From NCBI GenBank assembly GCA_016840425.1, contig JAEOSI010000019.1, positions 1 to 18,539 of the forward strand: a stretch of 18,539 nt of DNA, written 5' to 3'. The translations under genes were made by a program, and so were the position numbers. This DNA is from Candidatus Wukongarchaeum yapensis (lineage in GTDB: Archaea; Asgardarchaeota; Wukongarchaeia; Wukongarchaeales; Wukongarchaeaceae). Position 1 is the stretch's first letter. Each line of letters starts with the position of its first letter. The notes under the pieces are model-generated. The model made no database searches. It was not told the DNA's origin and saw nothing but the letters and a program-made list of their open reading frames with translations. Below, in pieces: positions 4,229 through 8,502 of the stretch.

Positions 4229-4954
4229 TTATCCGAGTTTTTTGCCTATTTTTTGGGCTTTTTCGAAGAGTTTTAACGCTTCTTCTTTTTTCCCTTCCTT
4301 TTTAAGAATTATTGTTTTTCTATACAGTGCTTCCGCATTTTCTGGGTCTATTTCTAATAATTTTTCAAAACATTTAAGGGCTTCTTCTGTTTTTTCCATA
4401 GTTTCTAATGTTAATCCTTTATTGTACAAGATTTTTGGACTTTCTGGCTTTATTGTAAGGGCTTTTTCGAAGAGTTTTAACGCTTCTTTTGGATTTCCTA
4501 ACCTCCTTAGAGCTGCTCCTTTGTTTACTAACGCTTTTATGTATGCTGGCTCTATTTTAAGGGTATTGTCAAAACATTCAAGCGCTTTTTCAATCTCCCC
4601 AATAGCCCCGTGAATTACCCCTTTATTATACCATGCTTCTACATCCTTTGGATCTATTTCTAGGACTTTTTCAAGGCATTTTATCGCTTCTCTTGGCATT
4701 CCTATTTCATCCAATAAGATTGCGACGTTCATCCATGCTGCTGTATTTTGGGGTTCTATTTTTATGACTTCTTTGAAGCTTTTTATCGCTTCTCCTGTTT
4801 CTTCTAGTTCATTTTGAGTTATCGCTTTTCCAAACCATGCTTTTGCGTTTTCTGGGTCTTTTTCTAACACTTTTCCAAAAAGTTTTAAGGCTTCTTTAAG
4901 TCCTCCTTTTTCCAATAATTGCCATGCTTCTTCTTGGTTGTCTTTTTCTTGCAT
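4229..4954 (-). CDS. Tetratricopeptide repeat (TPR) protein
   Basis: Repeating 34-aa units (AWxNKG...G..EEAL.CF.KALEIDP). Confidence 0.92.
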   Translation of the reverse strand: MQEKDNQEEAWQLLEKGGLKEALKLFGKVLEKDPENAKAWFGKAITQNELEETGEAIKSFKEVIKIEPQNTAAWMNVAILLDEIGMPREAIKCLEKVLEIDPKDVEAWYNKGVIHGAIGEIEKALECFDNTLKIEPAYIKALVNKGAALRRLGNPKEALKLFEKALTIKPESPKILYNKGLTLETMEKTEEALKCFEKLLEIDPENAEALYRKTIILKKEGKKEEALKLFEKAQKIGKKLG

Positions 4955-4972: not shown

Positions 4973-5737
4973 TTATCCGTATTCTTGAAAGACGTAATAG
5001 AGGAGGGTTGGATTTAGCTTGAAGGCATGCATAATACATGCATCTGCTTCTTTTGTTTTTCCTAATTCTTCTAGGGCTCTTCCTTTGTTGTACCATGCTT
5101 CTGCAAAGTTTGGGTCTATCTCTATGGCCTTGTCGAAACATTCTATCGCTTTTTCTATATCCCCCTCTCTTCTTAGAAATTCTCCTTTGTTTATCCATGA
5201 TTGTATATGTTTTGGGTTTATTTTTAGGGCTTTATTGTAGCTTTTAATCTCTTCTTCTTTCATTCCAAGCATGTTATATGCTACCCCTTTACAATACCAT
5301 GCATCTTCAAAGTTTTCATTTATTTCTAGGGCTTTATCGTAATATATTAAAGCTTCTTTTGGGTTTTTCATACAACACAAAACGTTTCCATGCTGTAACA
5401 TTGCTTCCGTGAAGTCTGGTTTGAATTTTATAGCATTCTTTAAGCTCTCTTTAGCTTTCTCAATTTCGCCTTTTGTATAATGTATTAAACCTTTCCAGTA
5501 CCATATTTCTGGCTGTTTTTGGTCTATTTCTAGGGCTTTTTCATAGCATCTAAGTTCTTCTTTTGTTTTTCCGAGGGAACGCATCACTACTGCTTTTAAT
5601 TTCCAGGCTTTTATCAAACGAGGTTCAGTTTCTATTGCTTGGTCAAAGCACTCTATAGCTTCAATTATTCTTCCTTTATCATACTCTTCTATTCCTTTTT
5701 CGACGAGATCTTCTGCTGTTCTTTCTATTTCATTCAT
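4973..5737 (-). CDS. TPR protein
   Basis: Units such as AWYCKGVAY, SWINKGEFL, AWYNKGRAL, CFDKAIEIDP. Confidence 0.92.
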   Translation of the reverse strand: MNEIERTAEDLVEKGIEEYDKGRIIEAIECFDQAIETEPRLIKAWKLKAVVMRSLGKTKEELRCYEKALEIDQKQPEIWYWKGLIHYTKGEIEKAKESLKNAIKFKPDFTEAMLQHGNVLCCMKNPKEALIYYDKALEINENFEDAWYCKGVAYNMLGMKEEEIKSYNKALKINPKHIQSWINKGEFLRREGDIEKAIECFDKAIEIDPNFAEAWYNKGRALEELGKTKEADACIMHAFKLNPTLLYYVFQEYG

Positions 5738-5800
5738 TTTAATCCCCTATTTCCTTGACTACCACTTAAATTGTTTGTGCCCTGTGTAGTTTTTGATTTG

Positions 5801-6247
5801 TTAAATTAGGCTCATCATGTGTCCATAATAGCTTGGATCTATTTGAACTGCTTGTCTTAAACATTCTGAAGCTTCTTTATCCCTCCCCAATAGGTGGAGT
5901 GAGAGGCCTTTTGTAAACCATGCTTTTGCGCTTTTTAGGTCTTTTTCTAAGACTTTTTCCGCATGTTCTAATGCTTCTTTTGGTTTTCCCATGATCGCTA
6001 ACACTAGTCCTTTATTTGTTAATGCTTCAAGATTTTCTGGGTCTATTTCTAATACTTTGGAGAAATAGGGCAAAGCTTTTTTTTCTTTTCCCATGGCAAT
6101 TAACGTGTTGCCCTTGTTTATAAGAGCCTCTACCGAGTTTGAGTCTGTTTTTAACGCTTTGTCAAAACATTTTAGCGCATCTTTCATTTTTCCCAGTTCT
6201 TGGAATTCTAATCCTTTTCTGATCAATTCTTTAGTGCTTTCACTCAC
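5801..6247 (-). CDS. TPR protein (about 4 repeats)
   Basis: ALINKGNTL, ALTNKGLVL, AWFTKGLSL units; GTG start. Confidence 0.9.
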   Translation of the reverse strand: MSESTKELIRKGLEFQELGKMKDALKCFDKALKTDSNSVEALINKGNTLIAMGKEKKALPYFSKVLEIDPENLEALTNKGLVLAIMGKPKEALEHAEKVLEKDLKSAKAWFTKGLSLHLLGRDKEASECLRQAVQIDPSYYGHMMSLI

Positions 6248-6534
6248 TCTTTAAGCCTCTTTAATTTTTAATCTTTAAACAAGACCTTTTAGCTTATTTT
6301 TTGGCCTTTCATTTCCGATTAAATGCTTTTATTTTGAAAACCTAATCTAGTAATGTCTTTTAAACCCTCTTTTTTATTTTTTTAAAATTTAGCTTTCGTA
6401 AAATACGTTTTCAATTAAAAATTCCCTACTTTACTTTTATTTTTCGTATCCCAGTAATAAAAAAAACTTAGAAGTAAAAATTTAACCAAAATTTGGCTTG
6501 TTTTTAACATAGATTCCTTCCTATATCCCTCATC

Positions 6535-6718
6535 TGCGGGTTAGAAATTGATAGAGACTATGATTTCGCCTTTTTTGTAGTCTTGAAAAAAGGTTTAGAA
6601 GTGTTAGGGCAGGGCCTGTCCGAATTTACGCCTGCAGACAGAACCTCTACCGAGAGAAATCCCGGCAAGTTCAGTTGTTGAAACAGGGAACTCCTTCCGC
6701 TAGGGAGGAGTAGTTCAC
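6535..6718 (+). mobile_element. tnpB: IS200/IS605-family remnant: decayed tnpB 3' end plus transposon right end (…TAGTTCAC)
   Basis: Frame 6535-6681 reads CGLEIDRDYDFAFFVVLKKGLEVLGQGLSEFTPAD…, matching the TnpB C-terminal CG-x3-DRD-x-NA…GL…GQG-x2-EFTP pattern (RuvC-III). A shifted frame gives RQVQLLKQGTPSAREE* (6663-6713). The element ends in a hairpin plus TTCAC (6714-6718). No start codon or upstream TnpB body found. Confidence 0.85.
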
Positions 6719-6738
6719 CTATCTGCTCTATTGCTTGC
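6604..6738 (+). ncRNA. Putative TnpB reRNA (omegaRNA) scaffold plus predicted 3' guide
   Basis: Hairpins GGGCAG/CTGTCC (6607-6621), CTCT/AGAG (6645-6656), ACTCCTTCC/GGGAGGAGT (6690-6711, one G-U pair). Possible TGAA/TTCA and CCTG/CAGG long-range pairs. Guide = flank 6719-6738 CTATCTGCTCTATTGCTTGC. Ends and expression are inferred. Confidence 0.6.
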
Positions 6739-8148
6739 TTCGTATATTTTGAGTTTCAGCACCGTTTTTACTAATTTTTTATAAGTTAGTTCTTTGCTTG
6801 GAGATATGTGCCCCATGATTGCAACCGTTTTTGTAGTGAGAATTTTCCAAGGTTCAGGAGGCATATGAAAAATCGTACCATATCTTCTCTCATAATATTT
6901 TTCTTTTCCAAAGATCATCGTTGTTGGATAGTGGGTATATTGGTTAATGTAATAACTAGTGATAGAAGGTTTCTGGTTTAAGCTTATGAACTTTAACGTT
7001 TCTTGAAGCGAGGCCTCGTTTTCTCCTGGAAAGCCTAAAATAAGCGCGCATCCGATAGGCAACCCTATTTCTTCTGCTTTTTTAACTGTTTCTTCTGCTC
7101 TTTTGATGTAGTTTTCTGGGTCTCTTGTTTTTCCCATGATTTTCGCCATCCGCTTACTTACTCCGTCAATACCGAAGTCTACTTGGGCAAAATTTAGTTT
7201 TAGATATCTTTCTAAATCTTTATCGGATGTATAGTCAACCCGTGTCTCGCAATAAAATTCATTTTGAGTTCTTTCTTTCTCCAGAAGTTCTAAAAACTTA
7301 TTTTTCCATTCTTTTTTACAGCCAAAAAACGCGTCTGAAAAGTCGATCCTATCTGGCAAATATTCCTTAACTATCTCTCGAAGTATTTTTATCGCTTTTT
7401 TTGGTGAGAGTACTCGCCATTTTTTTGGCAAGTTTCCGCAAAATTTACAACCCTGGGGACATCCTCTGCTAACGATCACAGGGTAGCTTGTTTTACCTTT
7501 ATCTTTCAACGGTTCTGCAAGTCCCCAAAGGTATTCTATAGCGTTCATTTCCTCCTCAGTGAGAGGGGTACTATTTAAAGTGGTTGTGTTTTCTGGTCTT
7601 TTTCCCTTTTTCATTAGCTCATATAGTGCATGTTCTCCTTCTCCCCTGATAACATAATCAAAAACATGATACCTCTTCTTTTCTATCTCCTCTACATATT
7701 CAAAAATTTTTTCAGGAAACTTTATGTTTTCTCCTTTTAAAGTTCTTAGTTCAATGTTTGTTATGTCGTAGAAATTTTTCGGCATCGCTGTTGGGTGTAT
7801 TCCTCCTACAACAATCTTGGTTTCAGGCTTTAGTGCTCGCGTTATAAAACCTACCAATATTGAGGGAATATATGCCAACGTACTGTAACAAGATATTCCT
7901 ATCATGGAGTAGTTATTATTTTCCGTGAGAAGTTTTTCCAGATGATCGATTAAAATCCCTAGTTTTTTTAAAGGCTCATCAATTACAGCTATATTAGAAA
8001 ATTGATCGATTTTTATTTCTATGTCCTTGTAATGGTGTTTCAGGTAGGAGGCTATGTTTATTAATGCTATAGGAAAAAGCACTGGGCCAGTGTTTAAGTC
8101 TCCTCTTACCATCTTTGGAGGCTGTAAAAACAAGATTTTTTCGCTCAT
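6715..8148 (-). CDS. Cobalamin-binding radical SAM enzyme (class B methyltransferase-like)
   Basis: N-terminal B12-binding region (IGISCYS, IVVGGIHPT, DYVIRGEGE), SRGCPQGCKFC (CxxxCxxC), FYCETRVD, LILGFPGE. Confidence 0.92.
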   Translation of the reverse strand: MSEKILFLQPPKMVRGDLNTGPVLFPIALINIASYLKHHYKDIEIKIDQFSNIAVIDEPLKKLGILIDHLEKLLTENNNYSMIGISCYSTLAYIPSILVGFITRALKPETKIVVGGIHPTAMPKNFYDITNIELRTLKGENIKFPEKIFEYVEEIEKKRYHVFDYVIRGEGEHALYELMKKGKRPENTTTLNSTPLTEEEMNAIEYLWGLAEPLKDKGKTSYPVIVSRGCPQGCKFCGNLPKKWRVLSPKKAIKILREIVKEYLPDRIDFSDAFFGCKKEWKNKFLELLEKERTQNEFYCETRVDYTSDKDLERYLKLNFAQVDFGIDGVSKRMAKIMGKTRDPENYIKRAEETVKKAEEIGLPIGCALILGFPGENEASLQETLKFISLNQKPSITSYYINQYTHYPTTMIFGKEKYYERRYGTIFHMPPEPWKILTTKTVAIMGHISPSKELTYKKLVKTVLKLKIYEASNRADR

Positions 8149-8160
8149 GGAAACCGTCCC

Positions 8161-8502
8161 TTATTGCCCTTCTTCCCCCGCATGCACTATTTCTACGACT
8201 TTTTCCATCACTCCCGAAAGGTTTAAAAATTTAAGGATATTGTTTATTCTTTCAAGTTCTTTTCCCGTTATTTTTTCTGCTATTTTCCTTACCTTCTCGA
8301 TGAAAATATCGGAAGATTCCGATGTTTTCCTTATCATTTCAAAGATTTGAGGAAACTCGTTTTCAAAATTTTTTAAAAACGTTTCATATGCCTCTTTTTC
8401 TAAGTTTATGTTCTTATAATCTAATTCTAAAAAATCTATAAGTTCTTTAAAACTTAGACTTTTTGCGTCATATTTGTCCTCTATTTTGATCTTTAAAGGC
8501 AT
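8161..8502 (-). CDS. Hypothetical 113-aa protein, possibly PqqD/RRE-like or winged-helix
   Basis: SD-like GAGGG before the ATG; 12-nt gap to the radical SAM gene. The C-terminal half (QIFEMI…INNILKFLNLSGVME) loosely follows the PqqD helical pattern; the fold call is weak. Confidence 0.65.
   Translation of the reverse strand: MPLKIKIEDKYDAKSLSFKELIDFLELDYKNINLEKEAYETFLKNFENEFPQIFEMIRKTSESSDIFIEKVRKIAEKITGKELERINNILKFLNLSGVMEKVVEIVHAGEEGQ

Follow-up and report, generated by a model that had tools for sequence, protein, structure and literature searches.

A solo right end of an ISDra2-like IS200/IS605 element beside a radical-SAM gene of Candidatus Wukongarchaeum yapensis is probably a transposon fossil

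We analysed a stretch of 18,539 nucleotides of Candidatus Wukongarchaeum yapensis, referred to here as the window, and found that its positions 6534–6718 (plus strand) are, by homology, the 5'-truncated right end of an ISDra2-like IS200/IS605 tnpB element, 185 nt in length. The locus is probably a dead transposon fossil, left by one insertion of a tnpB-only ISDra2-like element, and not a maintained stand-alone guide-RNA gene. We favour this reading because the orthologous site is empty in the sister species, the left end and a TATA-like box are missing, the coding and RNA parts have diverged equally, a 2-nt loss is unique to this copy and no tnpB lies nearby. The preliminary description had proposed a stand-alone locus loaded in trans; cognate TnpBs do exist, but the locus behaves as what that description called a simple fossil.

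The source assembly comprises 2.16 Mb in 277 contigs with 35% G+C. The remnant lies in a 467-nt spacer separating two minus-strand genes, which encode a radical-SAM and a TPR protein. Two further genes of the window point to an archaeal host: one codes for an archaeosine-type TGT carrying C2 and PUA domains, the other for a DHH-CID nuclease. The features of the locus are as follows:

5801–6247, minus strand: TPR gene, the other neighbour of the 467-nt spacer
6510–6536, no strand: left junction of the proposed deletion, where homology to the sister spacer fades; tnpB homology runs from 6534
6534–6602, plus strand: tnpB C-terminal coding trace, with the last Zn-ribbon Cys, the DRD of RuvC motif III and ...VLKKGLEVLGQGL; not a gene
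6603–6718, plus strand: guide-RNA (omega/reRNA) scaffold, 116 nt, matched at 115.2 bits (E 4e-25) by a covariance model built without the window copy
6607–6621, plus strand: stem-loop 1 (GGGCAG/CUGUCC), intact
6631–6639, plus strand: 5' strand of the long-range helix, with a 2-nt loss between 6635 and 6636
6674–6687, plus strand: 3' strand of the long-range helix, with T at 6676 where the family has C
6690–6711, plus strand: terminal right-end hairpin of 9 bp, intact, with compensatory changes in the family
6708–6718, plus strand: conserved terminus of the transposon, GAGTAGTTCAC, with 6718 as the last position of the element
6715–6717, minus strand: radical-SAM stop codon TGA, contributed by the transposon end
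6715–8148, minus strand: gene for a B12-binding radical-SAM protein of 477 aa, not shortened by the insertion
6719–6738, plus strand: flank and would-be guide CTATCTGCTCTATTGCTTGC, antisense to the final radical-SAM codons

The remnant is 78–87% identical to the 3' ends of 16 other loci in the same genome. All 16 paralogous matches end at ...GAGTAGTTCAC and the flanks beyond are unrelated, so that the element stops at 6718 and the guide would start at 6719, as had been predicted. Upstream of the 116-nt scaffold are about 23 codons of the TnpB C-terminus. Frame +0 (ICGLEIDRDYDFAFFVVLKKGLEVLGQGLSEFTP...) aligns with residues 342–385 of the intact 397-aa TnpB on contig C137 at 67% identity (BLASTP, E 3e-15); the 57-aa coding trace has no Pfam match, but BLASTP against the intact paralogue does recognise it. 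The paralogous right ends and the TnpB-aligned coding trace bear out the proposal that the locus is a TnpB guide-RNA scaffold that has lost its protein. The homology to tnpB starts at the last Cys codon of the Zn-ribbon (6534–6537), so that the Zn-ribbon codons, previously described as disrupted, are rather cut off. The remainder of tnpB is missing, as noted before, and no left-end homology was found upstream of 6534 either. Two further signs of damage had been read from the coding trace. The replacement of NA-x-N after DRD is not one of them, since the intact TnpBs of the family read DRDYNS(S/A)F and the canonical NAxN is missing throughout the family; only a change from N to D and one extra codon after DRD are special to the window copy. 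The frameshift exists, although the family alignment and the GG that follows 6635 in paralogous contigs place it at the 2-nt loss between 6635 and 6636 and not near 6660.

The window family resembles ISDra2 in that its scaffold overlaps the tnpB 3' end, measures about 116 nt and reaches as far as the right end, in that the adjacent flank forms the guide, and in having a 5-nt target motif 5' of the insertion. This motif is TTTAA in the window family and TTGAT in ISDra2. The window locus further differs in lacking a protein, a left end and an evident promoter, and its host is an uncultured archaeon.

Evidence for the history of the locus comes from G001, the sole other genome of the genus and the single sister genome compared. 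Its radical-SAM orthologue is 92% identical, as are both flanks, which are equivalent to window positions 5244–6509 and 6719–8300. Between these flanks, G001 has a spacer of about 230 nt that is unrelated to insertion sequences, single-copy in G001 and missing from the source genome (G000). The spacer ends in ...TTCGTTTTAA|CTATATGCTC, i.e. ...TTTAA|CTATATGC. The same TTTAA|flank boundary repeats at two further occupied/empty pairs (G001 C79/G000 C156 and G001 C61/G000 C124), which identifies TTTAA as the target-adjacent motif and the G001 allele as an empty site. We also considered loss of the element in G001 and rejected it, given the single-copy, IS-unrelated spacer that ends exactly in the TTTAA target.

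The two further pairs each involve a short element found in one species. On G001 C79 a scaffold-bearing element (L068, 1497–1711) is present in one species only, the counterpart at G000 C156:1018–1021 being empty. On G001 C61 (L070, 1380–1596) the orthologous TTTAA site, at about G000 C124:5160–5185, is empty. Such pairs between the two species suggest recent mobility or precise excision.

We infer a history of two steps. The element would first have inserted 3' of a TTTAA that overlaps the radical-SAM stop codon. The last codons of this gene are ...AGT TAA in G001 and ...AGG TGA in the window, with the length unchanged; the G001 stop TAA is part of the TTTAA target and occupies the codon position of the window TGA. 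The insertion falls inside the last sense codon, and the C-terminus ...AYS* became ...ADR*. It would have been harmless because the transposon end GTTCAC, read as G-TGA-AC on the opposite strand, yields a new in-frame stop at the old position. This terminus shows how an insertion into the last codon can be tolerated. In a second step, a deletion of about 1.3 kb at a 3-nt microhomology would have taken the left end, most of tnpB (about 94%) and some 230 nt of the former spacer, so that the final 185 nt were left over. The microhomology is visible at the junction (6534–6536), where CTG is common to both partners. That the scaffold can still be recognised would follow from its place in the last 116 nt of the element and from an event that postdates the divergence from the sister species.

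The remnant is found in the same context, with its private letters kept, in contigs from two other studies. Since these contigs bridge the remnant, the stump exists beyond the source assembly. Over the remnant the strains of these studies share about 99% identity, which is too close for a measurement of constraint, and their sharing of the stump fits fixation by drift or by selection. Sequencing runs from marine sediment and from mangroves also contain this archaeon. The locus itself is of little importance, yet it offers a clean, datable case of the decay of an IS605 element to a solo right end.

We then asked how the window scaffold compares with its family. All short copies retain the last ~116 nt, starting from GUAGGGCAGGG (window position 6603), and this defines the bounds of the scaffold. 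RNAalifold, applied to 20 copies, predicted stem 1, the long-range helix (6631–6639 with 6674–6687), inner hairpins and the terminal hairpin. A covariance model trained on 29 copies, excluding the window copy, matched 27 copies in the source genome. Besides the window copy these are 26, half of them behind a tnpB (13, two of these genes being intact) and half protein-free (13). Other scaffold copies with different flanks, which the preliminary description had suggested looking for, are therefore present and include protein-free ones. Across the phylum the model matched 36 of 151 genomes and 16 of 52 genera. Up to 20 copies occur per genome, many of them length variants of 95 nt or 146–149 nt, which no Rfam family covers.

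In a cross-genus alignment of 35 sequences, 94.5% of the cells pair and 14 of the 23 pairs carry compensatory substitutions, values that none of 500 shuffles reached, with the caveat that the alignment had itself been fitted to the model. Pairing, compensatory changes and the shuffle test together indicate that the family scaffold is a real and constrained RNA. Rfam contains no family that matches the scaffold at gathering score, with matches only at chance level (E of 1 or more). Folded as a single sequence, 6535–6738 is no better than shuffles (z −1.1), and the claim of structure is accordingly drawn only from the family alignment. Of the three stems originally proposed, those at 6607–6621 and 6690–6711 are real and show compensatory changes. 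The putative stem at 6645–6656 is possible only: it competes with a GAGA/UCUC hairpin, and covariation was seen for neither.

The window copy matches the covariance model over its full length (1–118). Its 115.2 bits lie below the training copies (123–144) and above the broken copy on C125 (110.6), a comparison biased against the window copy, which was not among the training copies. The score nevertheless exceeds that of every match from other genera. In a leave-one-out HMM the window copy reached 108.9 bits and ranked 17th of 19, the best copy scoring 131.9. It keeps 20 of the 23 consensus pairs, compared with 21–23 in most other copies. One lesion is the 2-nt loss, where the family GCCUGYGGAGAY reads GCCUGCAGAC in the window. 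This loss frameshifts the coding trace and also deletes two G-U pairs of the long-range helix, so that the earlier statement that the RNA pairs cleanly was too strong. It was seen in no other sequence of the cross-genus alignment, in which the YGGAGA motif is near-universal. A search with a 30-nt pattern for a tnpB-linked lineage that shares the loss gave no match in genome contigs or in metagenome contigs, collections that may lack records of the source genome.

The loss is one of four private changes at columns that are otherwise invariant, the others being A to C at 6615, C to T at 6676 and A to G at 6688. Position 6615 is a loop letter of stem-loop 1, which is A in all 29 other copies. The change at 6676 turns a G-C pair into G-U, and 6688 adjoins the 3' strand of the long-range helix; both of these variants turn up occasionally in the cross-genus alignment. 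Against the family consensus, substitutions affect 7 of 66 positions (10.6%) of the coding trace and 12 of 116 (10.3%) of the scaffold, a comparison of little power because much or most of the divergence may predate the insertion. The RNA part thus shows no sign of better preservation than the dead coding part, contrary to the idea, itself weakly tested here, that the stems were kept while the coding trace decayed. Nothing indicates selection on the window scaffold. Some observations count against the fossil reading: neither stem 1 nor the terminal hairpin has a flaw, the score of 115 bits comes from a model built without the window copy, and intact cognate TnpBs make loading in trans physically plausible.

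Such TnpBs were identified, as the preliminary description had proposed to search for. The genome contains 31 matches to the TNB domain (PF07282) and one full Y1 transposase. Two TnpBs are intact, on C137 (397 aa) and C59 (412 aa), with their D-E-D residues present. The C137 protein has OrfB_IS605, TNB and HTH domains and aligns with ISDra2 TnpB (8EXA, 8H1J) over 356 residues (E 6e-48), with the catalytic motifs GIDMG, AVEKL and GRDYN in place. The TNB-domain search of the genome found no tnpB match on the window contig.

The same genome carries at least 12 protein-free mini-elements of about 190–220 nt, which consist of a left end, TATGTTGGCGGGAAGTCCCC...GGGGGATGAAAGCCGA, and the scaffold. 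In an element of this kind the left end would be expected to have a subterminal hairpin and to follow the TTTAA target motif. These elements are located on C77 (3083–3186 and 6087–6190), C168, C253, C88, C147, C201, C160, C177, C175 and C268 (loci L015, L016 and L018–L026), and at least one mini-element is occupied in G001 where the source genome has an empty site. TATTTATA stands at about −30, its end some 25 nt short of the scaffold, in 10 of 12 mini-elements and in none of 13 tnpB-linked copies. The latter read GTTTGTAG at this position, from which TATTTATA is one G-to-A step away. The window copy has no TATA-like hexamer at −30 and reads TTTTTTGTAG, resembling the tnpB-linked copies. The stump is useful mainly for this contrast, which shows what a cassette has and a fossil lacks: the left end, the promoter and a central helix free of damage.

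Several of these loci are informative in other respects. One subfamily of mini-elements has a shorter hairpin, GGATGAATAATGATGATCC, in place of the inner stem-loop. The element encoding the intact 397-aa TnpB (C137:8208–9516) is orthologous to L069 on C29 of G001, which is internally deleted and retains positions 1–150 of the left end together with the last 101 nt. This pair shows how a single deletion could yield a two-ended mini-element. The mini-element at C177:4059–4257 is on the opposite strand to an adjoining tnpB TNB match (4252–4404) and looks like an insertion into another tnpB copy.

PATEs are protein-free IS200/IS605 mini-elements that often encode omega-RNAs needing TnpBs from elsewhere (Meers et al. 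2023, bioRxiv 10.1101/2023.03.14.532601). The window copy is likewise a protein-free omega-RNA scaffold, which would depend on a TnpB encoded elsewhere. Unlike PATEs, which have both ends and can be mobilised, it has no left end and no box, and a deletion junction bounds it on the left. The concept of a guide RNA used in trans is already published for PATEs, and in the source genome it applies to the mini-elements and not to the stump.

The best-surviving alternative to a fossil, which we nonetheless consider unlikely, is that plus-strand RNA occasionally made across 6603–6738 undergoes trimming and is loaded in trans by intact TnpBs of the family, making the locus active but not domesticated. 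The resulting complex would cut chromosomes carrying the empty TTTAA-CTATCTGC... allele, as in usual omega-RNA homing, but would be tied to this single site, since the element is no longer mobile. The two TnpBs with D-E-D residues speak for it, as do the 115-bit scaffold with 20 of 23 pairs kept and the abundance of protein-free scaffolds in the genome, given that PATE omega-RNAs are used in trans (bioRxiv 10.1101/2023.03.14.532601). The guide provides a further argument. The sole TTTAA-adjacent match found for it is the empty site of G001, a TAM-adjacent target in the sister species with one mismatch. For any IS605 copy, an empty allele of this kind is the usual target of homing. The suggested TAM-adjacent targets did not materialise elsewhere: the source genome has no TTTAA-adjacent site with up to 3 mismatches in 16 nt, partial matches being at chance level, and the 20-nt guide has no match in viral contigs. 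Loading in trans is further opposed by the lack of the TATA-like box that mini-elements have at −30 and by the 2-nt loss, which hits the near-universal YGGAGA of the central helix. Moreover, the missing left end precludes excision, so that the donor joint never arises in this lineage.

As an extension of this alternative, the left-end-less stump might be a guide-only selfish locus, loaded by sibling TnpBs and cutting and converting chromosomes of the species with an empty TTTAA through recombination. We regard this as quite improbable. If true, it could explain the stump in contigs of several studies.

Domestication by the host, either as a guide for a TldR-like dead TnpB or for antisense or 3'-end control of the radical-SAM gene, is scarcely credible: the radical-SAM stop inside the transposon end, the right-end hairpin directly behind it on the mRNA strand and the remnant in contigs of other studies would suit it, but there is no tnpB-like gene in the window or on the contig, the sister species lacks the locus while its gene ends at the same codon position regardless, and no sign of constraint was found beyond the stop codon. 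The locus does recall TldR systems (bioRxiv 10.1101/2023.11.30.569447) in its immobile scaffold, fixed guide and adjacent host gene. It differs from them in having neither an adjoining TldR or tnpB gene nor a TAM-adjacent genomic target, and in its absence from the sister species. The nuclease-dead TnpB that had been envisaged as a partner accordingly has no candidate nearby.

No evidence that the remnant is expressed was found. Among the reads and contigs compared with 5900–7300, the one RNA library, X20, covered parts of both neighbouring genes and nothing at 6040–6604, at a depth too low to indicate absence of expression. The X20 contigs over 6636–6718 carry the flanks of other copies. One of these metatranscriptome contigs runs from a scaffold into the flank that borders the C54 copy (TGTAGCAATTCTAACCATC...) and is possibly a read-out transcript of this sibling copy, or else DNA carry-over.
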